Source: Escherichia phage LF82-10. From it: a DNA stretch of 52,895 bases. Shown here piece by piece: positions 6,020 to 50,978 of this stretch (its first letter is position 1; each line of letters begins with the position of its first letter). Below the pieces are notes generated by a model, which saw only the letters and a list, made by a program, of their open reading frames with translations, searched no databases and was not told the origin of the DNA. A program made the position numbers and the translations under genes. The stretch lies in sequence record PV660453. One strand, 5' to 3'.

Positions 6020-6047
6020 TTGACCGTTTAGCAAAAAGTGCTATTAT
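6020..6047 (+). promoter_or_regulatory. sigma70-like promoter of major capsid gene (TTGACC-16-TATTAT) with TAGCA-box in spacer
   Basis: hexamers at 6020-6025 and 6042-6047; box TAGCAAAAAGTGCTA at 6029-6043. Confidence 0.5.
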
Positions 6048-6090
6048 TGACGCGTGACCTAATCACGCATTCAATCAAAAGGAAAATGTT

Positions 6091-7044
6091 ATGACCATGA
6101 AACTTGATTCATTCGAGCAGAACGAAATTACGGTAGGCCTTCGCAAGATGGGTGTTGCGGCAAGCAAAGCGGATCGCCTGGGTATCTGGACTGTAGAGCA
6201 GATGAAGCAGACGCTTAAGCGTCAGTATGAAGCGGCTTATCCCGAAACATCAGCGCTGGCGCTCTTCCCGGTTACAACCGAAATTGCACCAACAACCCGC
6301 ATCTTCGAATACATGAAGATTGACGGCGTGACCATGGCGAAAATCATCGCGGATTATACTGACGATCTGCCTCTGGTTGATGCGACCCATAGCCTGGAAA
6401 CAGGCCGCGTACACCGCCTGGGTAACGCGTGGATGATTTCCATTGACGAAATCAAAACTGGTGCGGCGCTGGGTTCTTCCCTGTCTGACCGCAAGGCAAC
6501 ACTGGCGCGCGAAGCGCACGAAACGCTGGTGAATACTCTGGTGTTCCAGGGTTCCAAGCCTCACAAAATTCTGTCTGTGTTCGACAACCCGAACATCACC
6601 CGCGTAACTTCAGCGGCTGGCGCGTGGGCTGACCCTGAAAAGGCAAGCGACGAACTGACGGATCTGATTGAGAAAATGGAAACCCTGACCAAAGGCAAGC
6701 ACAAGATCACCGATATTGTGATCCCGCCTTCTCAGCGTAAGATCCTGGCTAAGCGCATGCCGGAAACCACGATGAGTTACTTGCAGTGGTTTGAGTCTCA
6801 GAACGGCGGTATCACAATTAGCTCAATCTCTGAGCTTGAAGATATCGACGGCATCGGTACCAAAGGCATTCTTGCCTACGAGAAAGACCCGATGAACATG
6901 AGCATCGAGATCCCGGAAGCATTCAACATGCTCCCAATGCAGCCTAAAGACCTGCATTTCAAAGTGCCTTGTACGTCCAAGACTACTGGCCTGATCGTTT
7001 ATCGTCCTCTGACGATTATCTTGCTGGTTGGCGTAGGTAAGTAA
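6091..7044 (+). CDS. major capsid protein
   Basis: 317 aa; own promoter (TTGACC-16-TATTAT, 6020-6047) and flanking terminators imply high expression; size and position. Confidence 0.65.
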   Translation: MTMKLDSFEQNEITVGLRKMGVAASKADRLGIWTVEQMKQTLKRQYEAAYPETSALALFPVTTEIAPTTRIFEYMKIDGVTMAKIIADYTDDLPLVDATHSLETGRVHRLGNAWMISIDEIKTGAALGSSLSDRKATLAREAHETLVNTLVFQGSKPHKILSVFDNPNITRVTSAAGAWADPEKASDELTDLIEKMETLTKGKHKITDIVIPPSQRKILAKRMPETTMSYLQWFESQNGGITISSISELEDIDGIGTKGILAYEKDPMNMSIEIPEAFNMLPMQPKDLHFKVPCTSKTTGLIVYRPLTIILLVGVGK

Positions 7045-7049
7045 GACGA

Positions 7050-7079
7050 AGCCCCTGATTAATTTCAGGGGCTTTTTTG
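7050..7079 (+). terminator. intrinsic terminator after major capsid gene
   Basis: AGCCCCTGA-TTAATT-TCAGGGGCT then TTTTTTG. Confidence 0.6.
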
Positions 7080-7147
7080 TTGACACGCTGCCGGAAAGTT
7101 TTGTATATTGACGGCTCACAAACAAGTAAACCAAAAGGTGAATTATC

Positions 7148-7414
7148 ATGGCTGCAAAGAAAAACGTAATGAAGAACATTGGCGCTTGCCTGGTGCGTAT
7201 CGGCATGGTGGATGTTAAGCCGAACGAAACGATTGAGCTGACAGACGAACAGCTAAATTCACAGGGTGTTAAATCCCTGCTACACCGTGAGGTTTTGGAG
7301 TTCGAAGATGATCCGAAGCGCACGCGTGAACTTCTCGAAGTGATTCGCAAGAAGGCGAAACCAAAAGAAGAGAAGACCATTGAACAGCGTGAGAAAGCGC
7401 CGGATATCGAATAA
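7148..7414 (+). CDS. hypothetical head protein
   Basis: 88 aa, ATG with SD AAGGTG, flanked by terminators. Confidence 0.35.
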   Translation: MAAKKNVMKNIGACLVRIGMVDVKPNETIELTDEQLNSQGVKSLLHREVLEFEDDPKRTRELLEVIRKKAKPKEEKTIEQREKAPDIE

Positions 7415-7417
7415 CCG

Positions 7418-7446
7418 AAAGGGGGCGTAATGCTCCCTTTTTTTAT
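7418..7446 (+). terminator. intrinsic terminator
   Basis: AAGGGGGCG-TAA-TGCTCCCTT then TTTTTTT. Confidence 0.6.
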
Positions 7447-7460
7447 ACCTGGAGGAAACC

Positions 7461-7868
7461 ATGAACGAAGATGAAATGAAGATCGCAGAGATTATGCGAA
7501 AGCTTGCGCCAGCGCTAAAGAACGTGCCAGATCAGACGATTGTTGTTTGGATTAACCTTGCGGAAATGTTCGTGTGTGCCAATAAGTTTGGCGACAAGTA
7601 TCACCAGGCCGTCGCACTCTATACGATGCACCTGATGTTCCTTGATGGCGCGATGAAGGGCGAGAAAGAAACTCTTGAGAGTTATTCACGTCGTGTAACG
7701 TCATTCACTCTGAGCGGTGAATTTTCCACGAGCTACGGGGCAGTGACCGCCAATAATACCGGGCGATCAATCCATGATACGCCATGGGGCAAAATGTACG
7801 ATATTCTCAACAAGAAAAAAGGCGGCGGGTTCGGCCTGATTTCAGGAATCAGAGGTTGTGGGCGATGA
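7461..7868 (+). CDS. head-tail connector protein (putative)
   Basis: 135 aa; SD GGAGGAAACC before ATG; synteny. Confidence 0.4.
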   Translation: MNEDEMKIAEIMRKLAPALKNVPDQTIVVWINLAEMFVCANKFGDKYHQAVALYTMHLMFLDGAMKGEKETLESYSRRVTSFTLSGEFSTSYGAVTANNTGRSIHDTPWGKMYDILNKKKGGGFGLISGIRGCGR

Positions 7869-9081: not shown

Positions 9082-9083
9082 TT

Positions 9084-9764: not shown

Positions 9765-9767
9765 TCC

Positions 9768-9797
9768 GAAGGGGGGCTATTGCTCCCCTTTTTCTTT
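9768..9797 (+). terminator. intrinsic terminator after major tail gene
   Basis: GGGGGGC-TAT-TGCTCCCC then TTTTTCTTTT. Confidence 0.6.
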
Positions 9798-15678: not shown

Positions 15679-15726
15679 CGCCTGTATAATGGGTTCTTCT
15701 ATAAACCGCACGAAAAGGTAAACACA

Positions 15727-19282: not shown

Positions 19283-19312
19283 AAAGGGAGCCTTGCGGCT
19301 CCCTCTTTTTTT
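19283..19312. terminator. bidirectional terminator between J-like gene and Cor-like gene
   Basis: GGGAGCC-TTGC-GGCTCCC flanked by A-run upstream and T-run downstream. Confidence 0.6.
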
Positions 19313-19643
19313 ACATCACTTTATTGTAGATAACCGGGCTTCGGCTGGTTTGCTGGGTAATCATGTCAAGCTTGTATTCAGCGCCGCGATTCCACTCGAA
19401 GCGTAGCGTATAAGTGTTTACGTCGCCGTAGCACATTACGTGTTTGAACTTGCGCAGGTGCTTATCAAATATCACGTTTGTGCTTTCTTCAATATTCACC
19501 GTCCGATCCTGGCAGTTTACAACCGCCACGGTTGAGCCAGTAAGAGACATTCTGGAAGCGTCAACCGGATATCCGATATTAACGTTCAAAGCCATAGCGT
19601 TTAAAGGAGCTAAGAGAGCCATAGCGAGCATGATTTTTTCCAT
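19311..19643 (-). CDS. secreted protein, possible Cor-like superinfection exclusion factor
   Basis: ATG at 19643 (SD GAGGAA); signal-peptide-like N-terminus MEKIMLAMALLAPLNAMA; sits right after the J-like gene on the opposite strand; function speculative. Confidence 0.3.
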   Translation of the reverse strand: MEKIMLAMALLAPLNAMALNVNIGYPVDASRMSLTGSTVAVVNCQDRTVNIEESTNVIFDKHLRKFKHVMCYGDVNTYTLRFEWNRGAEYKLDMITQQTSRSPVIYNKVM

Positions 19644-19702
19644 TGGTGTTTCCTCGATTCGTTTATTTAAATTGATTATATCCACCAATCAGGGCGCGTG
19701 CT

Positions 19703-19717
19703 TAGCAATTCGTGCTA
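19703..19717 (-). promoter_or_regulatory. TAGCA-box (TAGCACGAATTGCTA) upstream of Cor-like gene
   Basis: -10 TATAAT at 19675-19680 (minus), 37 bp from box start; adjacent to stop of 19718..20368. Confidence 0.55.
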
Positions 19718-20368
19718 TTAGTTCCACCCAAGGAATCGAGCCATTGGAATCTTTAGGTTTCCGCGACCGTTGAAAATATCATTAAACCCTCGCTGATTTC
19801 GTCTGATCCATGTAGTCTGCAACTCCGAGCCAGTCCAGCGCATGAGGTTGCCAGAGTAACCAGAGGCAACGCCATCCGTTGACATTTCACCCATGCAGGA
19901 CTCCCACAGAAAGAATGGGTTGTAACCAGGTGATACGCTGGCAACGTTACCCTCAAGAGGCCAATTCCCGGCAACCTCAAGGAAGCCAGTTACACGAGGC
20001 ATTGAGGCAGCGCCCAAAGCAGACCAGATCAGTTGCCCGGAACCGTCGAACACGTCAAGCACGCCAGATGGAAAGTTTGCGTTTCTGGTTGTCCTGATCA
20101 CGCGGATTGAGTTTGGTAGGAACATATCAGATCCCGGAAACCCCCACGCGCCGTTAGAAAGAAATTGCACCCAATGCAAATATCCGTCTTGCTTCCTCGT
20201 GTTTTGGTTTAGGTAAGCCAGTGAGCTTATGTTGCCAAAAGGTGTGTTTAGGTTGTAGTCACCAGTATTTAAATATGACGGGTTGAAAGATGAGTGGTAG
20301 ATCGTGTGTTTCTGATCTGAGTTAATCATCATCGCCCCGGCGTTATTGTATACCTCAAAACCAGGCAT
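19718..20368 (-). CDS. hypothetical protein (MPG-paralog A)
   Basis: 216 aa, Asn/Gly/Ser/aromatic-rich; SD GAGGGGG; N-terminus paralogous to the next gene. Confidence 0.45.
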   Translation of the reverse strand: MPGFEVYNNAGAMMINSDQKHTIYHSSFNPSYLNTGDYNLNTPFGNISSLAYLNQNTRKQDGYLHWVQFLSNGAWGFPGSDMFLPNSIRVIRTTRNANFPSGVLDVFDGSGQLIWSALGAASMPRVTGFLEVAGNWPLEGNVASVSPGYNPFFLWESCMGEMSTDGVASGYSGNLMRWTGSELQTTWIRRNQRGFNDIFNGRGNLKIPMARFLGWN

Positions 20369-21173: not shown

Positions 21174-22232
21174 GTGATGAATCCAACAAGACCTGAATCA
21201 GATTTTTTCTGGTTCACCAGCGATGAAATGCCGAACGATTTTTACCACGACAAAGAGGCATGGACTTTTGATTTCGTATCAGGCTCCAGCCTTTGCGACA
21301 TTCACCAATCGTCACCCGCTTCATGGTTCTTCGCCAAAAACGAGATCACAAAGGCGCTTGAGTTTGGTACTCAGTCACACACCAACTTTGAATCGAAGTC
21401 GCTGTTTGATGCAACGTATCGACGCGCACCAGCCCCGGAAGACTTCGAAAACTTGATTACGTCTCAGGCAGCGCTGGCTACGAAGTTGAAATCATTCGGC
21501 CTGACTGGTACAAGCGGGAAGCAATATCCAGAGCTGATCAAAATGATGGTTGATTGCGGTGAAGATCTTAACGTGTTGTGGCTTATTGATATGATCGCAC
21601 AGTGCCAGGCTTGGGCTGATGGCGTTGAGTTGGTCAAGGCTGAGGATTACGACAAGTGCAAGATGATGCGCGCCGTTCTGGAATCAGTGCCGGAATACGC
21701 AATGATGATGGAAAGCCCAACGGCAATGCACGAGCTTTCATTGTTCGGAAAGATCAGCGGCGTTGACGTAAAAGTCAGACTTGACTACGTTGACACGGTT
21801 ACTGATCCAAACCTCATTCGTCATTTTGGGTACGATCCAGAGCTACACCCTGAAATCATTGTGATTATGGACTACAAAACGACGAGCAGCGCCAACCCGG
21901 CAGATTTTGACCGAAAGGCATTCGATCTTGGGTATTATCTGAAGATGGCATTGCAGCGTGATTTATTCGTCAAAGTGTACGATGAGAAGCGCCCCGTTTG
22001 CTTGGTTCTGCTTACACAGGAAAAGAAAGAGCCATTCTTGCCACTTGGAAGGCCAATGACGCGCGAGCAGCTTCTTTTAGGCCGCAAGCAGTATATGGGT
22101 GTCATTCACACTTACTCGATCTGCAAGGAATCAAACGTTTGGCCTGGCTATGCAAACGGCGCTCCTTTCGTTAGCCTTGAAACGCCTGACTACATCAAGC
22201 GCCAGCATAAGGATATTTTCGGCGGAGAGTAA
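21174..22232 (+). CDS. recombination exonuclease (PD-(D/E)XK, RecE/YqaJ-like)
   Basis: 352 aa; PD-(D/E)XK-like segment IVIMDYKTT; precedes Erf-like and SSB genes. Confidence 0.5.
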   Translation: MMNPTRPESDFFWFTSDEMPNDFYHDKEAWTFDFVSGSSLCDIHQSSPASWFFAKNEITKALEFGTQSHTNFESKSLFDATYRRAPAPEDFENLITSQAALATKLKSFGLTGTSGKQYPELIKMMVDCGEDLNVLWLIDMIAQCQAWADGVELVKAEDYDKCKMMRAVLESVPEYAMMMESPTAMHELSLFGKISGVDVKVRLDYVDTVTDPNLIRHFGYDPELHPEIIVIMDYKTTSSANPADFDRKAFDLGYYLKMALQRDLFVKVYDEKRPVCLVLLTQEKKEPFLPLGRPMTREQLLLGRKQYMGVIHTYSICKESNVWPGYANGAPFVSLETPDYIKRQHKDIFGGE

Positions 22233-22247
22233 TAGCACTAAAAGCTA
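22233..22247 (+). promoter_or_regulatory. TAGCA-box (TAGCACTAAAAGCTA) upstream of Erf-like gene
   Basis: starts 1 nt after exonuclease stop; -10 TATAAT at 22269-22274 within inverted repeat. Confidence 0.55.
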
Positions 22248-22311
22248 AACAAAAGCGGTGATGTTTGGTATAATCACCGCTCAATCAAACGAACGAAAAG
22301 AGGCATAAGCA

Positions 22312-22971
22312 ATGCGAACTTCAGAAAGTATTATCAATGTTTCAAAGGCTCTCATCGAGGCGAAAAAGAAATTTGCCATCGCCAAAAAATCCGGTTTTAA
22401 CAAACACCTCAACTCCCATTATTCAAACCTGACGGATGTATTGGAGGCGATCGAGCCAGCGCTGAAAGAGCTTGATTTGATGGTTATTCAGTCAAACCTT
22501 GAAAGCACGACAGATAAGGTTATGCACATCGAAACGCTGATCCTTCATACATCCGGCGAATGGCTTGCATTCCAGTACAACATGCCTATAGAGAAAATCC
22601 AGGCTCAGGCATACGGCTCAACAACATCATACGGGCGACGTTATGCACTTTGTGCCGCGCTCAGCATCACTCAGAGCGACGACGACGCAGAGATCGCGAA
22701 ACGCACCGCGTCGGATTACAAAAAGCTGGTAGCAGATTGCAACGATATCGAGGCGCTTGGAACCATTTACCAAAGTGCCAAGCAATCACTCGGAGCGGCA
22801 GAGTGGAAAATTGCAGAGGAGCATTTGCGCAAACGCAAAGCAGAATTGCAAGCCGGAACGGCGCGAGGATTTAACCCACCTCAAAAGCAGGAAGCGCCAA
22901 AGAAACAAAATCAGGTTGAAGAGAAGCCACAACATCCGGTAGACTCTCAAAACATCGAAGACTTTAACTAA
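22312..22971 (+). CDS. single-strand annealing protein (Erf-like)
   Basis: 219 aa; N-terminal region resembles Erf family; between exonuclease and SSB. Confidence 0.55.
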   Translation: MRTSESIINVSKALIEAKKKFAIAKKSGFNKHLNSHYSNLTDVLEAIEPALKELDLMVIQSNLESTTDKVMHIETLILHTSGEWLAFQYNMPIEKIQAQAYGSTTSYGRRYALCAALSITQSDDDAEIAKRTASDYKKLVADCNDIEALGTIYQSAKQSLGAAEWKIAEEHLRKRKAELQAGTARGFNPPQKQEAPKKQNQVEEKPQHPVDSQNIEDFN

Positions 22972-25899: not shown

Positions 25900-25922
25900 T
25901 GTCAACACCTCTTGTTAGTAAA

Positions 25923-25937
25923 TAGCACGAATTGCTA
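25923..25937 (+). promoter_or_regulatory. TAGCA-box (TAGCACGAATTGCTA) over predicted start site of tail fibre transcript
   Basis: minus-strand -10 TATAAT at 25944-25949 lies upstream of box; operator-like position. Confidence 0.45.
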
Positions 25938-25965
25938 AAACGCATTATATCAGGCATTCAGGCAA

Positions 25966-25998: not shown

Positions 25999-26934
25999 TT
26001 ACTCCAGTCTGTCAATAAGAGATTGCGGATCGTATAGCCTACGCTGCATCCCCTGGCGGAAATTGTCATTGTTCGGCAAGATTACCCTCAGATCCCGATC
26101 GTCAGCCATGCACAGGGTTTGGTAATCGGTAGACAGGCAAGCAACGCGAAGCTCACGATCTCCTTTGTATCGCCAAGCCACAATTTCAAGGTTCTCGGGC
26201 GTGAAAGTGACCCATACTTCCTGATTGGTTGCCGTCGCTACGCGATGCCCTTCGATTATGTCGCACACCAGATAAATAGAGCCAGTGCCAGCACCAAGCT
26301 TAACAACTGAACCGCGAGAATGATCGCGAGCCATAAAAGAATATTCCCCACTTTCATTAACAAACAGGATATTACACATTTCATCATCCAATCCTTCCGG
26401 TTGAGCGAGATAGCACGGATATGCATGAATAAGCGATTCTCCGCCATTCTCGCGAGGTTTTACGCCTACAATGAATGATTCATCCAATAGGCACTCATAA
26501 ACGCTTAGAGGCGTGCTGGCTCGCAATTCAGTGCGCTCCATAACAGCCATACAGGCATCGTGATCAACTTGCTTGCCAATATTGGCATCGGTTGTTCTCG
26601 CTATGCGCTTGTAAGCCTTCACGCGGTACTCTTGCGGAACCTTGCCCAAGAAGCGCCCCAGGATGTTAACCGCCTCGCTGTATGGCTCACCAGTCAGCTT
26701 CATGACCCAGCCAATGCCTTTATCGTTACCGCATGCGTTACAGATCGCCCCGCCGTCACCCTTCGACTCAAGGTTATCAGTCCAGCGGAAGCGGTCATTG
26801 CCGCCACAGTTTGGGCATGGCTGGTGTTTGCCATTGAATACGGTTGAGGGAAGAGCGCATATTGACTGCAACGCCTCGCGCCATAATCCTTTCATGTATG
26901 GCAAAACTTCCTCTTTCTGGTACATCATCGACAT
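25999..26934 (-). CDS. putative DNA primase
   Basis: 311 aa; N-terminal zinc ribbon CPNCGG-(x19)-CNACG like primase zinc-binding domains; adjacent to helicase module. Confidence 0.5.
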   Translation of the reverse strand: MSMMYQKEEVLPYMKGLWREALQSICALPSTVFNGKHQPCPNCGGNDRFRWTDNLESKGDGGAICNACGNDKGIGWVMKLTGEPYSEAVNILGRFLGKVPQEYRVKAYKRIARTTDANIGKQVDHDACMAVMERTELRASTPLSVYECLLDESFIVGVKPRENGGESLIHAYPCYLAQPEGLDDEMCNILFVNESGEYSFMARDHSRGSVVKLGAGTGSIYLVCDIIEGHRVATATNQEVWVTFTPENLEIVAWRYKGDRELRVACLSTDYQTLCMADDRDLRVILPNNDNFRQGMQRRLYDPQSLIDRLE

Positions 26935-27448: not shown

Positions 27449-27461
27449 AATTATTCCTCAA

Positions 27462-27476
27462 TAGCATTTTTTGTTA
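27462..27476 (+). promoter_or_regulatory. TAGCA-box variant (TAGCATTTTTTGTTA) in divergent HTH-helicase control region
   Basis: -10 TGTATTAT 27496-27503 for helicase at +36; same box lies between minus-strand -10 (27499-27504) and the HTH gene SD. Confidence 0.55.
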
Positions 27477-27540
27477 AAACTGGATTGTTGAGGCGTGTAT
27501 TATATCAATCAAACGAACGAACATCAAAGGCATTAACACG

Positions 27541-30026: not shown

Positions 30027-30038
30027 CACTATTTGCTA
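30024..30038 (+). promoter_or_regulatory. TAGCA-box (TAGCACTATTTGCTA) upstream of dam
   Basis: TAG is stop of VRR-NUC gene; -10 CATAAT 30061-30066 after hairpin TGCCGG/CCGGCA. Confidence 0.55.
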
Positions 30039-30096
30039 AACCTGTGCCGGAACAATCCGGCATAATGCAACTACACAAACAAACAGGAATGAGATC

Positions 30097-30812: not shown

Positions 30813-31025
30813 ATGGCTACTGCATTCGGACTGTATAAGGCAAAAGTTATTCGCGCTCTGATGGCGGCTGGATTCAAGCACAACGCGGAGGAATTCGCTG
30901 ATTGCCTTGATATGAGCTTTGACGAGATCAAGCATCTTCACCACACGCAATGGGGAGAATCAATCAAGCGCGATCTCGAAGAGTACCGGAAAGAGAATCC
31001 GCACGAATTCGCAACACAGCACTAA
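30813..31025 (+). CDS. hypothetical protein
   Basis: 70 aa ORF, ATG immediately after dam. Confidence 0.4.
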   Translation: MATAFGLYKAKVIRALMAAGFKHNAEEFADCLDMSFDEIKHLHHTQWGESIKRDLEEYRKENPHEFATQH

Positions 31026-31031
31026 TTGCTA
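31017..31031 (+). promoter_or_regulatory. TAGCA-box variant (CAGCACTAATTGCTA)
   Basis: -10 TATTAT 31054-31059 after hairpin ACCCGG/CCGGGT. Confidence 0.5.
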
Positions 31032-31087
31032 AACGTACCCGGCGAAAGTCGGGTATTATTATTTTACACCAACAAGAGGAATCACCC

Positions 31088-31893: not shown

Positions 31894-33030
31894 ATGTCAC
31901 TGAAGAAAATCACCGACGAGCAGTTAAACGCCGAGCGAGAGTCGGGTAAAACTTACCGCCAGATCGCGGAAGAGTACGGAATGAACATACGCACCGTCGA
32001 GGCTCGCGGCGCACGCCTGGCTAAGAAAGGTTTCGGTCACGGTAACGGCGATGCATCGCGATTTGTTCCAGAAGGCTTCATGGTTAAGGGCACATCAACC
32101 ATGCACCGCGCGAACGGAGAGGTTATCGTTAGCTGGACGAAAACCAATCAGGATCATGAGAAGTTAGCCGCCATGCTTGAGCACGCGATCGAGGCGTTTT
32201 GCGTTGAGCTTCCACGCGCAGCCGCTACACCTTCCAACGTTGGTGAGGTGATGGAGAACCAGCTCGCGCTTTATCCTGTATTCGATCTGCATATCGGTGC
32301 AATGGCTCATAAGCATGAGTGCGGCGAGAACTACTCAACCGATATTGCCGAGAAGGTTTTGGGCGATTTCTTCAAGTACGCTGTGAACGTTGCGCCGAAG
32401 GCGAAGAAGGCGGTTGTGCTGGTTGGCGGTGACTACCTCCACTCTGACGGCCTGGACGCTGTAACACCCGCAAGCGGTCACGTTCTGGATCAGGACTCAC
32501 GTTACGCTAAGCTGGTTCACGTTGCCATTCGCTCACTCCGTCGCGGCGTTGCGCTTCTGCTTGATAAGCATGAAGAGATTGAGATCCAGATTATCGAAGG
32601 CAACCACGATCAGGCGGGTATGATTTGGCTACGCGCTGCAATGGCGGCATACTTCGAAGATGAGCCGCGCGTCACGGTTGACACATCGCCTATGATCCTT
32701 CACCGTACCAAGTGGGGCAAAACGCTGTTAGGCTACACTCACGGTCACACGATGAAGAAAGCAGAAACCCGCCTCCAGGCGCTGGCTACTGACTTCCGTT
32801 CTGAGTTCGGCACGAGTGAATTCGTTTATACTCACTCAGGGCATTGGCATCACCAGACGCTTACAGAGCACACCTTAGGCATTGACGAGGTTCACGGTCA
32901 GTTAGGTGCCAAAGATGCGTATGCGGCTCGCGGTGGATGGCGCTCATATCGCCAGGCGGCGGTAATTGTCTATGATAAAGAATTTGGCGAGGTAGGCCGA
33001 TTCGTTTATCGTCCTCAGATGAGCAAATAG
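31894..33030 (+). CDS. HTH domain fused to calcineurin-like metallophosphoesterase
   Basis: 378 aa; N-terminal HTH-like KTYRQIAEEYGMNIRTVEARGARL; phosphoesterase motifs DLH, GGDYLHSD, GNHD, HGH, GHWH in canonical order. Confidence 0.7.
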   Translation: MSLKKITDEQLNAERESGKTYRQIAEEYGMNIRTVEARGARLAKKGFGHGNGDASRFVPEGFMVKGTSTMHRANGEVIVSWTKTNQDHEKLAAMLEHAIEAFCVELPRAAATPSNVGEVMENQLALYPVFDLHIGAMAHKHECGENYSTDIAEKVLGDFFKYAVNVAPKAKKAVVLVGGDYLHSDGLDAVTPASGHVLDQDSRYAKLVHVAIRSLRRGVALLLDKHEEIEIQIIEGNHDQAGMIWLRAAMAAYFEDEPRVTVDTSPMILHRTKWGKTLLGYTHGHTMKKAETRLQALATDFRSEFGTSEFVYTHSGHWHHQTLTEHTLGIDEVHGQLGAKDAYAARGGWRSYRQAAVIVYDKEFGEVGRFVYRPQMSK

Positions 33031-33042
33031 CACTTTTTGTTA
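33028..33042 (+). promoter_or_regulatory. TAGCA-box (TAGCACTTTTTGTTA)
   Basis: TAG is stop of 31894..33030; -10 TATACT 33065-33070 after hairpin AGCCGA/TCGGCT. Confidence 0.55.
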
Positions 33043-33099
33043 AAAGCCGATCGCGTTGGTCGGCTATACTCATTTCATCAACTCAGAGGAGTAACGGAA

Positions 33100-35171: not shown

Positions 35172-36758
35172 TTACCCCAGCAAGCGTGGATTAACGTAAA
35201 TCTTATCACCGATCAGGCAAGTGTAATTCTTCTCGTCAAGCATCGGCAGCAAGTGATCTTTGATTCGTGTCATTGTTCCGGCCTGGCCTTCGAATGGTCG
35301 AACCTTGCGCGCGGCCTCGTAAAGCGCCCGAAGACCAACAACGCCCTTCCCCTGCTTTCCGCTCTTGATCAGCAAGTCAATAAGCTTGTTCATTTCTGCT
35401 GAATCGCCAGCGTGCCCGGCAGACGACGCGGAAGAAAGATAGGTCTTGCTCAGCTCGTTAAACATGATCACGGCCTCCTGCATTGTGTCAAGCTCAATCT
35501 CTCGACTCTTCGGCGCATTGCTTCCGTTTGGTGAGAACCAGTTACGGATCACATGCAGAACCGACGCGATACGAATCGCCTGTTTATCGAACTTGCCCAG
35601 CGCACCGCGTAACATGGTGTGCGAGTATTTCCCGCCGTCTGCCAAGTGTGGCTCCATCGCCTGGCGTGCGTTGTTAAGGTACTTCATCGCGCTCTTGCTC
35701 ACCGTGAGCTTAACGTCAACCTCACTCATGATGGCGTGTATCAGCTTGAAGTAATCAGCTTTCAGGCCGCCGTCAATAGGCTCGTAAGTTGACTCGCCAT
35801 TGTCATTCACGAAAACACGCTCACCAAGGAATGACTTCTCACGAACCAGCAAGAAACGCTCAGAAACACCGATACCGCGCGCACCTGCATTCATGATCGC
35901 GTTGATTGTCTCGTCCTGCGCGATAACCGAAATACAACCCATAGCCACGAATGACATGTTGTTATCAGCGTTCGCACGAGCGATAGACACGTTCCCTGCA
36001 TCCCATGCTTTCAGCACAAGCTCGCTGTTTGTCTTCTTCGAACCGTCACCATACGTCATGCCCAACAGGCTGTTAACGGATGTCGCTTCGTCCGAGATCA
36101 CAGCGAAGTTGCCTTGACGGTTGTTAATGCGTGCCAAGCCTTCAGGCGTGGTATCTGAAACAGGGAAAACGATATCGCAAAGGCGCTCAAGCTTCTCTTC
36201 AAGATCCTCTTTCTCCTCAAACAGCGAGGCCATTTCAGATGGCGCTTTCTCCTGTTTCATTTCCTTCGCCAGCGCAGACAGTTTGGCGAGAATCTTTTTA
36301 CGCTCACGCTTACGAGCCTCGTTGAGTCGCTCAGTCTCCGCGATCATTGGCGCGATGGATAGCGAGTTGATTGCGGATTTCCCCGTTGATGGTGGCTGAC
36401 TGGTTACAACGTAGAGCGCAGTTGGTTGTTGCGTTCCGTGATAGTCAACCGTGAACCTACCCAGCATGGCGGCAGACACGCAACCTACAAAGTGCATATA
36501 GGCTGAAGACTCAGGGAATTGAACCGATCTCGCGGCGTTGCGTGAGAGCTTGCCGACCACATCACTATCGTTGCCCAGGGAAATAACAGGATATTTATCA
36601 TTACCTGAATCAATCTCTACCGGAGCCTTCCAGAAGGATTGGGATTGACGATATCCATTCGCATTTATGGCAACGCGGAGCGGCGGCAACCCTTCGGCCT
36701 TTGCAACCTCGATCACTTGTTCCGGCGAAAGTTTATCATCATTGAAAATATCGAACAT
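35172..36758 (-). CDS. large P-loop-like protein of unknown function
   Basis: 528 aa; strong SD AAGGAG; deviant Walker A-like TSQPPSTGKS; own box/-10 promoter (36815-36829 / 36786-36791). Confidence 0.5.
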   Translation of the reverse strand: MFDIFNDDKLSPEQVIEVAKAEGLPPLRVAINANGYRQSQSFWKAPVEIDSGNDKYPVISLGNDSDVVGKLSRNAARSVQFPESSAYMHFVGCVSAAMLGRFTVDYHGTQQPTALYVVTSQPPSTGKSAINSLSIAPMIAETERLNEARKRERKKILAKLSALAKEMKQEKAPSEMASLFEEKEDLEEKLERLCDIVFPVSDTTPEGLARINNRQGNFAVISDEATSVNSLLGMTYGDGSKKTNSELVLKAWDAGNVSIARANADNNMSFVAMGCISVIAQDETINAIMNAGARGIGVSERFLLVREKSFLGERVFVNDNGESTYEPIDGGLKADYFKLIHAIMSEVDVKLTVSKSAMKYLNNARQAMEPHLADGGKYSHTMLRGALGKFDKQAIRIASVLHVIRNWFSPNGSNAPKSREIELDTMQEAVIMFNELSKTYLSSASSAGHAGDSAEMNKLIDLLIKSGKQGKGVVGLRALYEAARKVRPFEGQAGTMTRIKDHLLPMLDEKNYTCLIGDKIYVNPRLLG

Positions 36759-36814
36759 GTTAAAAACTCCTTGTTTGGTTGCTCAATGATAGAGCAACCA
36801 ATGATAGTGCGTTT

Positions 36815-36829
36815 TGGCAAAAAGTGCTA
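36815..36829 (-). promoter_or_regulatory. TAGCA-box (TAGCACTTTTTGCCA) upstream of 528-aa gene
   Basis: -10 TATCAT at 36786-36791 (minus). Confidence 0.5.
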
Positions 36830-36833
36830 TTGG

Positions 36834-37250: not shown

Positions 37251-37307
37251 TTTTAGTTCCTCGTTGTTGGTGTGAATGAATAATAACAAAACCCGCCGAA
37301 GCGGGTT

Positions 37308-37322
37308 TAACAAAAAGTGCTA
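37308..37322 (-). promoter_or_regulatory. TAGCA-box (TAGCACTTTTTGTTA)
   Basis: TAG is stop of 37320..38012; followed by hairpin CCCGCTTCGGCGGG and -10 TATTAT 37280-37285 (minus). Confidence 0.55.
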
Positions 37323-38012
37323 TTTGTAACGGTTGTACTGGAAGACGGCGCGAGCGAATCCGCGCGGAGTTAGGGAGCGGAGTTGCTTAGTCTTCGCAGA
37401 CTTTCCGCCGAGGAACTTCCAGCCCCAAAAGAAATGCAAGCCTTCCTCTTTTGGTAATGGTGCCTTCTCTGGCTCGCGGAAACCGTTGCCATGCCAGATG
37501 CAAGTTTTTTTCGTGTAGCCGTCTCGCAGTGGCATTTTGGGGTGCCAGGAGCCTTCACGCGCATCGACGTATTGCCCGAAGTCACGAGGATGGAAATAGA
37601 ATTTAGGCTTGCCCAGGTTTTCCGGCTTTGACATTGCCCCTACCGGGTTTTCAATCATCCACGGGATCTGGTAGCGTTCGCCAATCTCAATGACAACCTT
37701 TGCACACTCAAGCGCATATTTCATTTCGGCGTCGTCTCTCTCGTGCTGCGCGCCAGATTGGGCAAACAGAGTGCAATCCGGGAAGCCAAAAACGATATCA
37801 GGCTTGGGCAACCCCAGGATCTCAGCCTTTGTGATGAAATCCTTATCAATCCACGTATTCACATATCGGATATTTGGGTGATTCATCTTCACGGCGTACT
37901 CGCCATGATTGCCGGAGTCAGCGTTGAAGCATATCACCTGACAACCAACCTCAGCCCAAGGCAATCCCATAATGCCGGAGCCGTCAAACAGCGACCATAC
38001 AACACGCTTCAT
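37320..38012 (-). CDS. short C5-cytosine methyltransferase-like SAM-dependent protein
   Basis: 230 aa; motif I-like LFDGSGIMG, motif IV-like GFPDC (Pro-Cys region), motif VI-like ENPVG; no room for a normal target-recognition domain; stop TAG embedded in box 37308-37322. Confidence 0.5.
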   Translation of the reverse strand: MKRVVWSLFDGSGIMGLPWAEVGCQVICFNADSGNHGEYAVKMNHPNIRYVNTWIDKDFITKAEILGLPKPDIVFGFPDCTLFAQSGAQHERDDAEMKYALECAKVVIEIGERYQIPWMIENPVGAMSKPENLGKPKFYFHPRDFGQYVDAREGSWHPKMPLRDGYTKKTCIWHGNGFREPEKAPLPKEEGLHFFWGWKFLGGKSAKTKQLRSLTPRGFARAVFQYNRYK

Positions 38013-38933: not shown

Positions 38934-38991
38934 CTTCATTTCCTTGTTTGTTGGTGTAACTGCATTATTGCAGATCACGCCGATTTAGTTT

Positions 38992-39006
38992 TAACAAAAA
39001 GTGCTA
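38992..39006 (-). promoter_or_regulatory. TAGCA-box (TAGCACTTTTTGTTA)
   Basis: TAG is stop of 39004..39351; weak -10 AATAAT at 38964-38969 (minus). Confidence 0.5.
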
Positions 39007-39351
39007 TTTGATGCCGTCAAAGGTTGTGTATTTCAGGTTCACACTGACCTTGCCATCATCGAAATGGAAAGCGGGAGCCTCAAAGCGGATGATGTTATTC
39101 ATCGTTCCGGCCTCTACGTAGCGTCGTGCGCCATTTCTCATGGGGATAACGCTGACTCTCTTTGCCGCATCGAATGGATTTGAAACGCCAAAGTATCGAC
39201 ATACAGCGCCGCGCAACGCCTCATCTTCATGCTTATGCATATCACGGATGAGGCGATTTTTAGCGTCCATCATCACATCATAGCTTGCACAGCTAGAGCC
39301 GATGTTGCTATATTCGCGCATTCCGCCAACCTTGAATTGATTGTTGTTCAT
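39004..39351 (-). CDS. hypothetical protein
   Basis: 115 aa; stop TAG embedded in box 38992-39006. Confidence 0.4.
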   Translation of the reverse strand: MNNNQFKVGGMREYSNIGSSCASYDVMMDAKNRLIRDMHKHEDEALRGAVCRYFGVSNPFDAAKRVSVIPMRNGARRYVEAGTMNNIIRFEAPAFHFDDGKVSVNLKYTTFDGIK

Positions 39352-39807: not shown

Positions 39808-39866
39808 TTGCTTATCTCCGTTTCGTTTTAGTGGTTACATTATGCCGGGTTTCCGCCCGGCACGTT

Positions 39867-39881
39867 TAGCAATTAGTGCTA
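39867..39881 (-). promoter_or_regulatory. TAGCA-box (TAGCACTAATTGCTA)
   Basis: abuts stop of 39882..40088; -10 CATAAT 39839-39844 (minus) after hairpin. Confidence 0.55.
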
Positions 39882-40088
39882 TCAGATTGATTCGATTACC
39901 GCGTGGAAATCTTTGCGGGTTTTGCAGTCTGCCAGGCGTGCATAACATGCTTTAGCGTAGTCAGTATCGGCCTGAGTTTCGAAGATGCCACACTCTTTGG
40001 CGATAGCTTTTAATGTACGCTTTCCGCTTTCGATATCAGCCTTGATGCCGTTGATGGTGTTGATGTCGATGATGTTAAGAGTTGTCAT
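39882..40088 (-). CDS. hypothetical protein
   Basis: 68 aa; downstream of box 40155-40169. Confidence 0.4.
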   Translation of the reverse strand: MTTLNIIDINTINGIKADIESGKRTLKAIAKECGIFETQADTDYAKACYARLADCKTRKDFHAVIESI

Positions 40089-40154
40089 TTTGCTATCCTT
40101 TTGTGTGCTTCGTTTCGATGGAGTAATAATAGCAAAAGCCAGATCGGGAGTTTT

Positions 40155-40169
40155 AGCAAAAAGTGCTAT
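40155..40169 (-). promoter_or_regulatory. TAGCA-box (TAGCACTTTTTGCTA)
   Basis: -10 TATTAT 40126-40131 (minus). Confidence 0.5.
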
Positions 40170-41514: not shown

Positions 41515-41574
41515 TGCTGTTTCCTCAGTTCGTTTCGTTGAGATAACTATAGCCGAAACATCCTGAGTGGTTTT

Positions 41575-41589
41575 AGCAAAAAGTGCTAT
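41575..41589 (-). promoter_or_regulatory. TAGCA-box (TAGCACTTTTTGCTA), first of leftward accessory operon
   Basis: -10 TATAGT 41546-41551 (minus). Confidence 0.55.
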
Positions 41590-42930: not shown

Positions 42931-42945
42931 ATGGAATAATTGGAA

Positions 42946-42960
42946 TAGCACGAACTGCTA
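42946..42960 (+). promoter_or_regulatory. TAGCA-box (TAGCACGAACTGCTA)
   Basis: preceded by GGAATA repeats; -10 CATAAT 42983-42988 inside palindrome GGGGCTATGCCATAATAGCCCC. Confidence 0.55.
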
Positions 42961-43019
42961 AAACACCAGATCGGGGCTATGCCATAATAGCCCTACACCA
43001 ACAAAACGAGGTTAGCACA

Positions 43020-43441: not shown

Positions 43442-43746
43442 TGATTTTGAATGACCGAGAGGAGCTACAGGAAGCCGTGAGACTGGCGCTAAAATCAGAC
43501 GTGCCATTTATCGAAGTTGTGCTTTGCGTGGCTGCCAGCCTCGATGTACGGCCCCGTGTGGCTGCTTTCATGGTTCACTCTAACACCTTCGATATGGCTG
43601 GCACATTCCAGGGTGATAAATTCCTTGAATTCTTGATGCAGCTAACCGATAAGTTCGAAGCCATGCATCCTGACCGGATAAGCGCCAGTGGGCAGATCCT
43701 GATCGAGGAGTTCACCAACTTTGTGATTCGCGGTACATGGCGATAG
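43438..43746 (+). CDS. hypothetical protein
   Basis: ATG 43438 overlaps upstream stop; 102 aa; stop TAG embedded in box 43744-43758. Confidence 0.4.
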   Translation: MMILNDREELQEAVRLALKSDVPFIEVVLCVAASLDVRPRVAAFMVHSNTFDMAGTFQGDKFLEFLMQLTDKFEAMHPDRISASGQILIEEFTNFVIRGTWR

Positions 43747-43758
43747 CACTTTTTGTTA
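43744..43758 (+). promoter_or_regulatory. TAGCA-box (TAGCACTTTTTGTTA)
   Basis: TAG is stop of upstream gene; -10 CATACT 43781-43786 after hairpin TGCCGG/CCGGCA. Confidence 0.55.
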
Positions 43759-43816
43759 AACGTGTGCCGGGCTAATCCGGCATACTGTCACCACACCAAC
43801 CAATCAAGAAGTCAAC

Positions 43817-44095: not shown

Positions 44096-44415
44096 TGAAA
44101 AAGTTTGTCGGATCGTGTTTGCTGGTTTCTGTCCTGGCGCTGGCGTTCATCGCTCTCGCAGGGTGTGACGACTCAACCCGCGTGCCTCGTGAGCAGCGTA
44201 GCAAGGTGCGGGTCACAACGGCTGAATCCGGGCGCGTGCAGGTGCGCAAGATCAGCGAATTCCGTGACGACCTGGCTTATGACAGCTATCGAGGCGTGTA
44301 CATCATCACGGACACTGAAACCGGGCAGGAGTTCATAGGCGTTAGCGGTGTTGGTATCAGTGCTATCGGGCAACACAATTGCGGCAAAAACTGCTGGAAG
44401 AAAGATGAGAGATAG
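44095..44415 (+). CDS. putative lipoprotein
   Basis: ATG overlaps upstream stop (TAATG); signal peptide with lipobox LAGC. Confidence 0.5.
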   Translation: MKKFVGSCLLVSVLALAFIALAGCDDSTRVPREQRSKVRVTTAESGRVQVRKISEFRDDLAYDSYRGVYIITDTETGQEFIGVSGVGISAIGQHNCGKNCWKKDER

Positions 44416-44427
44416 CACTTTTTGTTA
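44413..44427 (+). promoter_or_regulatory. TAGCA-box (TAGCACTTTTTGTTA)
   Basis: TAG is stop of lipoprotein gene; -10 CATAAT 44450-44455. Confidence 0.55.
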
Positions 44428-44484
44428 AAACTGCCCGGAGCGATTCGGGCATAATGATTTCACACCAAACGAGAGGAAGTGAAA

Positions 44485-45227: not shown

Positions 45228-45324
45228 TGCAATCGGCGCGGCATGTCTTCTTGCTTCCGTCACTGTGGTTGCGGTTGGCGCTGTTTGGCTAATGGCAAAA
45301 ATATTGCGTGAGATTGACGAATAG
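45220..45324 (+). CDS. small hydrophobic peptide (34 aa)
   Basis: ATG overlapping upstream stop; one TM segment; stop TAG embedded in box 45322-45336; alternative is a 70-aa TTG-initiated ORF 45112..45324. Confidence 0.25.
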   Translation: MINAIGAACLLASVTVVAVGAVWLMAKILREIDE

Positions 45325-45336
45325 CACGAATTGCTA
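45322..45336 (+). promoter_or_regulatory. TAGCA-box (TAGCACGAATTGCTA)
   Basis: -10 TATCAT 45359-45364 inside inverted repeat CGGCATG/CATGCCG. Confidence 0.55.
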
Positions 45337-45396
45337 AAACGGCATGGCTCCTGAGTGGTATCATGCCGTTACACCAAACAAACAGGAGTCACCCAA

Positions 45397-49110: not shown

Positions 49111-49111
49111 A

Positions 49112-49126
49112 TAGCACTTTTTGTTA
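49112..49126 (+). promoter_or_regulatory. TAGCA-box (TAGCACTTTTTGTTA) fused to terminator-like hairpin
   Basis: 41 bp identical (inverted) to 37282-37322; hairpin CCCGCTTCGGCGGG 49129-49142 then TTTTGTTATTC. Confidence 0.5.
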
Positions 49127-49183
49127 AACCCGCTTCGGCGGGTTTTGTTATTCTTGCTTTAACGAAACGAAATGGAGTGAAGA

Positions 49184-49414
49184 ATGAAAACTTTATCAGA
49201 GCTGAAGTCGATCGCGGCTGACTTGCAGGAGCGAATGAAGCCACTAAACCACAAGCTGGAAAACTCGCGCATTACTATAGCCTCAAGAATGTCTATCGAG
49301 TGCTCACTGCGCGAACTTAAAATCATGTGGCATGATGCCATGTGCGACGTTCACGCTCACCCTGAGTACGAAGGTGAGTTTAAATTCCAGAAAGAAAACA
49401 ACCCATACCGATAA
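49184..49414 (+). CDS. hypothetical protein
   Basis: 76 aa. Confidence 0.4.
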   Translation: MKTLSELKSIAADLQERMKPLNHKLENSRITIASRMSIECSLRELKIMWHDAMCDVHAHPEYEGEFKFQKENNPYR

Positions 49415-49424
49415 GGATTCAATA

Positions 49425-49721
49425 ATGAACACTATCAAAAAGTTGACTCCAAACATGGCAACCAAAATCAAGTACGAGATCCCGGAGGATGGCACATTCT
49501 TAGCCGTCTGGACTTATCGCGAGATCCCGTACTCCGGTACTTATCAATGGCGAAACGGCGAGCTTGCCGTGTGGGTTGATGGCGTTGGCTGGGAAATTGC
49601 CGGGCATGGAGCGGCGGAGGACTATTACGATTTCAACTGCCTCGTGTCTATGGCTAGTGGTGAGAATTACGGCGGTGCTTGTCACTTTGTTGCGGTTGTA
49701 GTGGTTGAGGAAACAGCGTGA
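49425..49721 (+). CDS. hypothetical protein
   Basis: 98 aa from in-frame ATG (MNTIKK...). Confidence 0.4.
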   Translation: MNTIKKLTPNMATKIKYEIPEDGTFLAVWTYREIPYSGTYQWRNGELAVWVDGVGWEIAGHGAAEDYYDFNCLVSMASGENYGGACHFVAVVVVEETA

Positions 49722-49891
49722 AGACTTTTATTATTTTCCTAGTTGGCGCTTGCATGGTTAGCGTTTCTGATAACTTCACAGTTTTCGTTGGCGCTGCGAT
49801 GGTGTCGTGGGCTTACTACCGATGCGGAAAGGCTGACGGAATAGCGGAAGGTAAACGCCAGGCGCTGGCATCCGGCACTAAGTTAAAGTAG
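49718..49891 (+). CDS. small membrane protein (GTG start)
   Basis: 57 aa, two hydrophobic segments; GTGA overlap with upstream stop; TAG embedded in box 49889-49903. Confidence 0.25.
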   Translation: MKTFIIFLVGACMVSVSDNFTVFVGAAMVSWAYYRCGKADGIAEGKRQALASGTKLK

Positions 49892-49903
49892 CACGATTTG
49901 TTA
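49889..49903 (+). promoter_or_regulatory. TAGCA-box (TAGCACGATTTGTTA)
   Basis: -10 TGGTATAAT 49923-49931 inside inverted repeat GGGGAT/ATCCCC. Confidence 0.55.
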
Positions 49904-49961
49904 AAAGGGGATTCGTCCTGACTGGTATAATCCCCACATCAACCAAGCAGAGGAAACGATC

Positions 49962-50414
49962 ATGAAATTAGTTTGCACATCATCACGCGTCAAAAGCTTC
50001 ACCGTTGGAAAGAAATATGAAAGCCGCACAGTCGAGCATTACGGAATTGTTACGCACGAGGTGGACGGAGACACCGCTTGCGGCTGGGTGATTAACGATG
50101 GCCTGAGCATTTGCGGAGCTGATCACTCAAACCCAATGGCAACTTTCCGCAAGGATAAGAGCATGATGAAGATGCTTGTTCGCGCATTCGTATTGGTTGC
50201 AAAGGCTCGCGGTTGGGGTGATAGCAAGAGCGGGGCTTACAAATCCTGGAGCGGCACACCTTACAAAAACTCCAGAGATTGGGCGCGAGCTATTGCCTTC
50301 AGCTACGATGTTGGGAGTGTTGCGCGCGAGATAATTGATGAAGATCCTAACGTGAAACTCATCGACCAGGAAGCGGTAAACCTGTTTGCCGAAAACGAGA
50401 TCGACAACTGGTAA
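49962..50414 (+). CDS. hypothetical protein (MKLVCT, MKxKC-family)
   Basis: 150 aa; SD GAGGAA. Confidence 0.45.
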   Translation: MKLVCTSSRVKSFTVGKKYESRTVEHYGIVTHEVDGDTACGWVINDGLSICGADHSNPMATFRKDKSMMKMLVRAFVLVAKARGWGDSKSGAYKSWSGTPYKNSRDWARAIAFSYDVGSVAREIIDEDPNVKLIDQEAVNLFAENEIDNW

Positions 50415-50476
50415 TTTGCGCAAGGCCGTTTATAATAGCGGCCTTACTCAGACAAACCAATCAGAAGGAAATCACC

Positions 50477-50905
50477 ATGAAATTACGTTGCACATTCCTT
50501 GAGCCAGCTTTCGCAAAAGCTCTGGCTGAGTTCTACACCATCGGCAAAACTTACGCCGCATCCATCAAGCCGGGATCAAAGGTTGGCGCTGTGCTGGTGG
50601 AGTCAAACGAAGGCAATGAAGGCGATCAGCTTGCAGCAGTTCCGAGCCGCTCAGGGTTCGAGGTTCAAATTAAGAACCAAATTCCGATCGCAAAGTTCGA
50701 GGTTGTTGGCAAGCGTGCGGTGAAGCTTGTTAAGACTGAGAAGCGCGTAACGCTGAAACTTGATGGCGTGGGGAAATCAGATAAGCGCCGATTCCGCCGT
50801 GTTTGCCGCCAGTATCGAAAGTTGAAATTCATCAACCCTGGATTCTATTATGATCTGGAATCCGATCGCCACATGGCTAAACTTGCGCGACATCACCGCC
50901 GATAG
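50477..50905 (+). CDS. hypothetical basic protein (MKLRCT, MKxKC-family)
   Basis: 142 aa; SD AGAAGGAA. Confidence 0.45.
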   Translation: MKLRCTFLEPAFAKALAEFYTIGKTYAASIKPGSKVGAVLVESNEGNEGDQLAAVPSRSGFEVQIKNQIPIAKFEVVGKRAVKLVKTEKRVTLKLDGVGKSDKRRFRRVCRQYRKLKFINPGFYYDLESDRHMAKLARHHRR

Positions 50906-50917
50906 CACTTTTTGCTA
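50903..50917 (+). promoter_or_regulatory. TAGCA-box (TAGCACTTTTTGCTA)
   Basis: -10 TATAGT 50940-50945 inside inverted repeat CGGGGTT/AACCCCATCG. Confidence 0.55.
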
Positions 50918-50978
50918 AAACTCGAAATCGGGGTTGCGATATAGTAACCCCATCGAAACGCAACGGAGCAAACGAAAA

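Follow-up and report, generated by a model that had tools for sequence, protein, structure and literature searches.

DNA of Escherichia phage LF82-10 (PV660453; 52,895 nucleotides, referred to as the window) carries between its genes many copies of a 15-bp box, TAGCAC-N3-TTG(C/T)TA. The box is well supported as the upstream element of ∼22 promoters at the class II activator position. Together with its flanks it matches the Escherichia coli site for MarA, SoxS and Rob, the marbox, at the position this site has in the micF promoter. On balance we favour the view that the box promoters are micF-type sigma70 promoters, which would depend on a host activator and be read by MarA, SoxS or Rob. This view draws on the position-by-position match, the micF geometry, the invariance of the site throughout the phage family, and the lack of a suitable phage protein.

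As a repeat, the box is already known. The 2024 re-annotation of phage TLS described 18 intergenic copies of a 21-nt direct repeat, aaATAGCACnnnTTGnTAAAA, which run along the direction of transcription ∼76 nt before start codons and occur also in T1, Rtp, and Rogue1 (PMC11447400). Stoperators, enhancer sites, and UP elements were suggested, the function of the repeat was named among the open questions on T1-like phages, and only three sigma70-like promoters were reported (PMC11447400). The LF82-10 box is the same element: it shares the consensus aaATAGCACnnnTTGnTAAAA, the intergenic location, the orientation with transcription, and the distance to start codons, and the central triplets of both fall into the groups TTT, GAA, and AAA. 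The fixed -10 spacing, marbox match, hairpins, and late-promoter copies reported here for LF82-10 are not part of the TLS paper. The marbox reading of this T1-like repeat is new in the literature searched, where nothing was found that links Drexlerviridae with MarA, SoxS, Rob, or RamA, or a marbox with a bacteriophage. Searches by motif string and keyword gave no paper with the motif other than the TLS paper, which was also the only relevant result in a search for Drexlerviridae transcript mapping.

Architecture of the repeat

The string TAGCACNNNTTGYTA has 18 exact matches in the window versus 0.00 in 100 dinucleotide shuffles, and a relaxed palindrome pattern allowing one mismatch gave 24 copies versus 1.18 expected. 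An earlier note on this DNA, made from the letters alone, had listed 24 copies (16 on the + strand, 7 on the - strand, and one in the capsid promoter at 6029-6043), all of which were recovered. Further, degenerate copies missing from that list lie at 15705-15724 (tail J gene), 26994-27013 (- strand, primase gene), and 41779-41798. The structural half (1-19278) holds 2 box matches and the remainder (19279-52895) 21, and 170 kb of unrelated viral DNA scanned with the box contained no matches except seeded ones. Including the flanks, the consensus is an asymmetric 20-mer, ATAGCAC-nnW-TTG-Y-TAAA(A/C), starting 1 nt before the 15-bp box. A scan of the window with the 20-mer soxbox/marbox consensus, AYNGCACNNWNNRYYAAAYN, detected 9 perfect and 14 one-mismatch sites, versus 0.02 and 0.76 in shuffles; the mismatch is nearly always an A at position 19, where micF also has A.

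A -10-like hexamer (TATAAT, CATAAT, TATAGT, TATCAT, TATTAT, and similar), often with an upstream TG, follows 22 copies. The gap between 20-mer and hexamer is 18 bp in 19 of the 22, 17 bp in two (22232 and 27461), and 19 bp in one (36811). Measured again, the spacings proposed in the earlier note agree: 36-38 bp from box start to -10 hexamer in 22 copies, and 22 bp from TTGYTA to the hexamer. All 22 copies are directed at the gene they precede, with 67-84 nt from the start of the 20-mer to the start codon. The upstream gene usually ends within the box or against it, as had been claimed; the box TAG is the stop codon of the upstream open reading frame (ORF) in 12-13 copies, a TAA or TGA lies at most 6 nt before the box in ∼5, and a box-internal TAA is used in 2. 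The earlier interpretation as promoters stands, with ∼22 modules whose box has its centre near -42 and substitutes for a -35 element, and so does the statement that nearly all early, middle, and accessory transcription units carry it.

A strong hairpin lies between site and start region in 18 of the 22 modules. The minimum free energy averages -12.5 kcal/mol, compared with -6.8 kcal/mol in background windows (p = 1e-7); relative to shuffles, the mean z-score is -3.6. The stems vary in sequence between copies; the hairpin is within the 18-bp gap in eight modules, and in ten the -10 hexamer is in its loop or 3' arm. Given this placement relative to the -10 hexamer, the complete hairpin can form only in read-through RNA from upstream. 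A terminator scan was passed by three of the 22 module hairpins (31035-31056, 37289-37308, and 49126-49145) and by that of a degenerate copy before the primase gene (26958-26983), and equivalent hairpins are annotated as rho-independent terminators in the T1 record. In the simplest reading of these sequences, the gap hairpin probably ends or protects the upstream transcript.

Correspondence with the host marbox

The published soxbox/marbox consensus is AYNGCACNNWNNRYYAAAYN (PMC2064960), and a definition derived from chromatin immunoprecipitation (ChIP) is gcannwwntgnnaaa (PMC12052159). A typical phage copy, GCACTTTTTGCTAAA, which can be divided as GCA-CT-TT-T-TG-CT-AAA, satisfies every specified position of the ChIP-derived definition. 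Among 246 unique family-wide instances the variable positions are the degenerate positions of the marbox, with 8-9 free, 10 A or T, and 14 C or T, the last being fixed by the family-wide search pattern but also the only bases found at that position in the LF82-10 window. The mar promoter of the K-12 genome has a marbox of its own, ATGCCACGTTTTGCTAAATC, which shares 16 of 20 positions with the phage site.

The geometry corresponds as well. In class II promoters the marbox points forward and overlaps the -35 position (PMC12052159); in micF, the model of the class, the site is centred at -41.5 (PMC9638938). On NC_000913.3 the micF promoter has a forward marbox, ACAGCACTGAATGTCAAAAC, that ends exactly 18 bp ahead of its -10 hexamer, TAGAAT; this is the phage gap, and 18 bp is also the dominant gap among the 246 instances. 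In 71% of these instances an A is conserved seven bases after the -10 hexamer, at offset 50 from the 20-mer. Cryo-electron microscopy of a Rob activation complex located contacts at -47 and -45 (PMC9178005). With the conserved A as the inferred +1, these two positions are those of the G and the A of GCAC. The -35 position of the phage modules reads TAAAAC or TAAACN, as in micF, and canonical sigma70 -35/-10 promoters were not above chance in 19-53 kb. The modules thus unite the sequence features of class II marbox promoters: a 20-bp consensus site, forward orientation, overlap with the -35 position at an 18-bp gap, and a weak -35 with a usable -10.

The class II sites of E. coli (micF, and also lpxC P2, lpxL P1, and rfaY P1) resemble those of the phage in being asymmetric, 20 bp long, and composed of a GCAC 'A site' and a YAAA 'B site', and their promoters in having a forward site that overlaps the -35 position, 18 bp to the -10, a poor -35, and a good -10. 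The host sites differ in being scattered and degenerate, whereas ∼22 near-consensus copies are packed into 34 kb of this virulent phage. The invariance of T2, A3, T11, and T12, the embedded stop codon, and the gap hairpin also set the phage sites apart.

The earlier note had proposed looking for the box in related genomes, and it is indeed found across the T1-like phages. A viral contig scan gave 7-25 copies each only in T1-like genomes of 41-52 kb, TLS and Rtp included, and singletons elsewhere. The scan was extended to five other genomes that are complete or nearly so, those of T1, Klebsiella Webervirus cp25, Warwickvirus brachmannus, Braunvirinae T145P1, and Tempevirinae A123. In each there are 13-21 sites with at most one mismatch to the consensus, the core is again ATAGCACnnnTTGyTAAA, and 18 bp is the dominant gap. 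The capsid, helicase, and primase of these phages share only 46-69% identity with the LF82-10 counterparts, and an invariant site despite such divergence suggests a very conserved partner, such as a host protein. Erwinia phage Snitter also has the sites, and there too site and gap are unchanged. The A123 record (MG065669.1, 'Campylobacter phage A123', UNVERIFIED) is a Tempevirinae genome with 15 marbox-type sites at 17-18 bp spacing, as in E. coli phages, and its Campylobacter host label looks doubtful.

In the mechanism we favour, the 20-bp site would be a consensus marbox/soxbox/robbox for monomers of the AraC-family proteins MarA, SoxS, and Rob (RamA in Klebsiella and Salmonella). The activator would occupy ∼-50 to -31, contact sigma70 region 4 and the alpha C-terminal domain, and recruit host RNA polymerase. 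Transcription would start at the conserved A 7 nt past the -10 hexamer, and the RNA would have a CA-rich leader and a Shine-Dalgarno sequence ahead of an ATG located ∼75 nt downstream of the site. The modules, micF-type in architecture, lack a usable -35; the early and middle units of the phage probably run on host RNA polymerase and a host activator. Rob is expressed constitutively at a high level (PMC9178005), and its constitutive abundance makes it the likeliest activator. With no -35 required in a class II promoter, the 18 bp of the gap can hold a variable hairpin, and the whole would form an all-in-one intergenic cassette of ∼75 bp, with a stop codon in the site, a promoter, and a hairpin that probably terminates or stabilises the upstream transcript.

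Copies of the box are also found at three late promoters:

6020..6047, + strand: capsid promoter TTGACC-16-TATTAT, with a perfect 20-mer (6025-6044) lying backward in the spacer; same in T1
15683..15724, + strand: tail J promoter TGTATAAT (15683-15690), then a forward variant, ACCGCACGAAAAGGTAAACA (15705-15724), between the predicted +1 and the ATG at 15727
25922..25952, - strand: tail-fibre promoter TGaTATAAT (25944-25952), with a backward 20-mer (25922-25941) over the predicted +1; in T1 at 34902-34921

The tail J copy is conserved in T1 and Erwinia phage Snitter. MarA and SoxS repress where a marbox overlaps the promoter spacer, as at pbpG (PMC12052159), and MarA can also activate from unusual positions (PMC12781870). 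The capsid copy resembles pbpG in sitting within the -35/-10 spacer, and the tail-fibre and tail J copies are at or after +1. By this analogy, the placement suggests that the copies at the capsid, tail J, and tail-fibre promoters occupy occluding positions, from which the same protein would hold the late genes down. The terminase operon promoter, TGGTATAAT at 52848-52856, is box-less. In T1 a perfect-consensus box (8362-8381) lies 14 nt before the ATG of the small terminase gene, too close for a -10 hexamer.

Candidate readers and competing explanations

In the earlier note the box was described as a quasi-palindrome, a description that fits it poorly. The inverted half-sites TAGCA and TGCTA are present but conserved unequally: every copy has G3, whereas either C or T is found at the mirrored position 13; C6 and T10, likewise without variation, do not complement each other; and the 3' AAA(A/C) has no complementary 5' flank. 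The backward copies at the capsid and tail-fibre promoters retain the entire asymmetric 20-mer, so the AAA block is part of the site rather than promoter context. A palindromic operator for a dimeric helix-turn-helix (HTH) protein, expected to be symmetric and to show no orientation preference, was rejected, the copies being strictly co-oriented. Asymmetry and strict co-orientation argue instead for a monomeric reader of the MarA type, with two HTH motifs, over a symmetric dimer. No such protein was detected among the phage products: tblastn and phmmer searches with MarA and SoxS gave nothing better than E = 0.4, and Pfam analysis of 19 phage proteins gave no AraC or HTH_18 match.

Two phage proteins had been put forward as readers. 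The 378-aa protein (31894..33030) as a whole matches a DNA repair exonuclease family (PHROG); its N-terminus, considered as a sigma-r4-like reader, has only a marginal Pfam match (E = 0.007) and was discarded. The other, a 152-aa regulator (26990..27448) of the T1 gp23 family, proved to be a single-HTH, Cro-like protein with a variable predicted recognition helix. It has weak Cro, YdaS, and HTH_17 matches in Pfam, and is confined to T1-like genomes. Its AlphaFold model (predicted local distance difference test, pLDDT, 86.6) has Xfaso1 and N15 Cro as best Foldseek matches, and a PDB profile search likewise returned Cro proteins, with no AraC or MarA match. The idea of a hidden double-HTH protein was dropped, as both searches give Cro proteins only. 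Within the family the mean top-residue frequency is 0.48 in the predicted recognition helix, 0.83 in the N-terminal region, and 0.75 in the C-terminal core; judged from the model, a helix this variable would suit an invariant DNA target poorly.

The regulator is nevertheless the main rival reader. In this explanation a phage protein, mainly the 152-aa Cro-like regulator, would bind TAGCA-N5-TGCTA as a dimer, activate at -42, and repress over core promoters, the likeness to a marbox being coincidence or mimicry. We regard this as a less probable alternative that still deserves serious attention. A distance of 10 bp between half-sites is typical of HTH dimers, and the protein is present, at 55-70% identity, in each of the five other genomes checked. 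Its gene has a sigma70-like promoter, so that the regulator could be made first, and a factor whose level changes during infection would explain both early activation and occlusion of late promoters. These attractions are offset by the asymmetry of the site and the orientation of its copies with transcription, by a model and PDB profile that indicate a single Cro-type HTH, a class known as repressors, and by a predicted recognition helix that is the least conserved segment, set against a DNA site that does not vary. That ∼22 bits of marbox consensus and the exact micF spacing should both be matched by chance is, we infer, very unlikely.

Several observations weigh against a host activator. A Keio-collection screen with the T1-like phage LL5 reports, in text and supplement, no hit for rob, marA, or soxS, and Rob by itself is thus not strictly needed for plaques to form under laboratory conditions. 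The screen lists only strong defects, and the three proteins are redundant with one another. Unstressed cells contain little MarA or SoxS, and most of their Rob stays sequestered until it binds a ligand. The TG-extended -10 elements of many copies could work without an activator. T2, A3, T11, and T12 are invariant beyond what the consensus demands, and at position 19 most sites have A instead of Y, a base found there in micF too. Finally, a conserved Cro-like regulator with a sigma70-type promoter of its own is present in every genome checked and is a possible reader.

If the promoters were activator-independent extended -10 promoters, the box could be a roadblock ('stoperator'), a UP-like element for the alpha C-terminal domain, or a helper of upstream termination. 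The G at the TG position in 69% of the 246 instances, the service of the terminase operon by a box-less promoter, and the location of the box always at gene ends, followed by a hairpin, would agree with such roles, some of which were named in the TLS paper (PMC11447400). We consider them improbable. UP elements are A/T-rich and the invariant core here is GCAC, a roadblock or terminator helper does not need a fixed 18 bp to the -10, and the position-by-position marbox match is left unexplained by any of them. Least probable, in our judgement very much so, is a cassette of box, hairpin, -10, and leader that serves mainly as a recombination substrate for shuffling accessory genes, with transcription secondary. 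It would be PeSL-like; the T4-type PeSL cassettes similarly place a short repeated early promoter and a stem-loop between small accessory genes, but differ in sequence and contain ordinary sigma70 early promoters. Some 45-75 bp of near-identical sequence does lie beside most small accessory genes, two cassettes have identical hairpins (37289-37308 and 49126-49145), and accessory gene content varies among relatives, yet under shuffling there would be no reason for precisely the marbox positions to be invariant, for the -10 spacing to be fixed, or for copies to occur at late promoters. It is, moreover, compatible with host-activator-dependent promoters rather than an alternative to them.

Other known elements were compared and set aside. 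A sigma54 promoter has the consensus TGGCAC-N5-TTGC with GG and GC 10 bp apart; TAGCAC-N3-TTGC (AG-N8-GC) is 2 bp short, has A where G is required, and is followed by a -10 hexamer. Sites for IHF, CRP, FNR, and lambda CII (TTGC-N6-TTGC) misfit in spacing or half-sites. The MotA box of T4 middle promoters (TGCTT) is centred at ∼-30, 11-13 bp from the -10, and is read by the phage proteins MotA and AsiA. There the box stands in for the -35 and the activator brings host sigma70 polymerase to an ordinary -10, as is proposed for LF82-10. In LF82-10, by contrast, 22 bp separate TTGYTA from the -10, the centre of the box is at ∼-41 to -42, and a phage activator is not evident, so that a MotA-type promoter was rejected.

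Should host activators read the box, a virulent phage family would depend for most of its promoters on a non-essential stress regulon, that of AcrAB-TolC efflux and antibiotic tolerance. There would be consequences for phage therapy with Drexlerviridae and for phage-antibiotic interactions, for host-range prediction by way of the MarA, SoxS, Rob, or RamA family member present in a host, and for the design of compact synthetic stop/terminator/promoter cassettes. A more far-reaching and tentative idea, which we think rather doubtful, is that almost the entire early and middle programme is wired to MarA, SoxS, and Rob (or RamA), that the late copies occlude, and that activator availability is the early-to-late timer. 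Such a timer could work by titration, with hundreds of replicating genomes each carrying ∼25 sites, or by decay of unstable MarA and SoxS after host shut-off. Bile salts, salicylate, redox drugs, and multidrug-resistant mutants with mar, sox, or rob up-regulated should in that case raise phage gene expression, and the same conditions would also raise the receptor of TolC-dependent relatives, linking the regulation of antibiotic resistance directly to phage susceptibility. The marbox/micF reading makes the question left open in the TLS paper accessible to simple and cheap experiments, and even if the host-activator reading is wrong, the fixed class II geometry defines the main promoter type of the family.

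Promoter modules and neighbouring features

The individual modules, followed by the degenerate copy before the primase gene, are:

19675..19718, - strand: 20-mer ATAGCACGAATTGCTAAGCA, 18-bp gap, TATAAT; before gene 19311..19643
22232..22274, + strand: perfect marbox consensus, 17-bp gap, TGgTATAAT, the -10 sitting in the loop and 3' arm of a hairpin; before the Erf gene 22312..22971
27461..27503, + strand: ATAGCATTTTTTGTTAAAAC, 17-bp gap, TATTAT; before the helicase gene 27541..29610
30023..30066, + strand: perfect consensus, 18-bp gap with hairpin, CATAAT; before the dam methylase gene 30097..30810
31016..31059, + strand: ACAGCACTAATTGCTAAACG, perfect consensus, TATTAT; hairpin 31035-31056 passes the terminator scan
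33027..33070, + strand: gap 18, TATACT; after the 378-aa exonuclease gene, whose stop is the box TAG
36786..36830, - strand: ATAGCACTTTTTGCCAAAAC, gap 19, TATCAT in hairpin loop; before the 528-aa DUF3987 helicase gene 35172..36758
37280..37323, - strand: perfect consensus, TGtTATTAT; canonical terminator hairpin AAACCCGCTTCGGCGGGTTT in gap
38964..39007, - strand: gap 18, AATAAT
39839..39882, - strand: perfect consensus, gap 18, CATAAT
40126..40169, - strand: gap 18, TGcTATTAT
41546..41589, - strand: gap 18, TATAGT; first leftward unit beside a 630-bp non-coding region
42945..42988, + strand: ATAGCACGAACTGCTAAAAC, gap 18, CATAAT
43743..43786, + strand: perfect consensus, CATACT
44412..44455, + strand: gap 18, CATAAT
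45321..45364, + strand: gap 18, TGgTATCAT in hairpin loop
45759..45802, + strand: gap 18, TGaTATAGT in hairpin loop
46846..46889, + strand: AAAGCACTAATTGCTAAAAC, gap 18, TGtTATAGT in hairpin loop
47629..47672, + strand: perfect consensus, TGgTATCAT
49111..49154, + strand: perfect consensus, TGtTATTCT; terminator hairpin 49126-49145 in gap
49888..49931, + strand: GTAGCACGATTTGTTAAAAG, gap 18, TGgTATAAT
50902..50945, + strand: gap 18, TATAGT in hairpin loop
26964..27013, - strand: degenerate box AAAGCACGAAAAGCTAATCA, 2 mismatches, gap 19, CATAAT in loop of terminator hairpin; before the primase gene 25999..26934

The terminator hairpin AAACCCGCTTCGGCGGGTTT is identical in two cassettes on opposite strands, at 37289-37308 (- strand) and 49126-49145 (+ strand), and a near-copy, AACCCGCTTCGGCGGGTT, lies at 52821-52838, ahead of the terminase promoter. 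The shared hairpin suggests cassette duplication or exchange. After the conserved A, the predicted transcripts begin with one of two G/U-poor leaders, ACACCAAC(A)A... or A(T/A)CGAAACGAA..., which span 14-25 nt ahead of the Shine-Dalgarno sequence from offset +50 (for example 30073-30096, 31066-31087, 42995-43019, and 50952-50978) and may be a translation or stability element.

The gene for the Cro-like regulator (26990-27448, - strand) has a sigma70-like promoter, TTGATG-17-TGnTATAAT, on the - strand at 27527..27499. Within 27449-27540 this promoter and the helicase box promoter (+ strand, -10 at 27498-27503) share one A/T hexamer on opposite strands, and the helicase box is located in the predicted 5' leader of the regulator gene, so the two promoters probably compete. 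The regulator family has a near-invariant Gly/Asn-rich N-terminal segment, DKRTxNGNNGTxR...GYYVLKDEVKAGLxARL, the first ∼20 residues of which are modelled with low confidence (pLDDT 52-56).

The 630-bp non-coding region (41589-42223) is divergent. It contains a cluster of inverted TATTCCA/TGGAATA repeats at 41602-41666, and two more such repeats are found at 42932-42947, just ahead of the box at 42945. The region also has (GATGT)4 at 41710-41730 and, at 41880-41945, an AT-rich block of TATATA sequence. In T1, four copies of TGGAATA are clustered in a similar way at 48749-48797. These elements could be operators for the Cro-like regulator, or belong to an origin or terminal region.

The first 25 kb of the window are identical or nearly so to Escherichia phage LF82-12 and siblings, and ∼75% identity is seen with vB_EcoS_NBD2 and Klebsiella T1-like phages. 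The annotated LF82-12 record (PV660455.1) has the T1-type gene order. LF82-10 is 84 bp shorter than PV660455.1 at ∼23533-25999, in the tail-fibre gene or its 5' region, and the start of the tail-fibre gene is annotated in PV660455.1 75 nt further upstream than in the ORF of the window.

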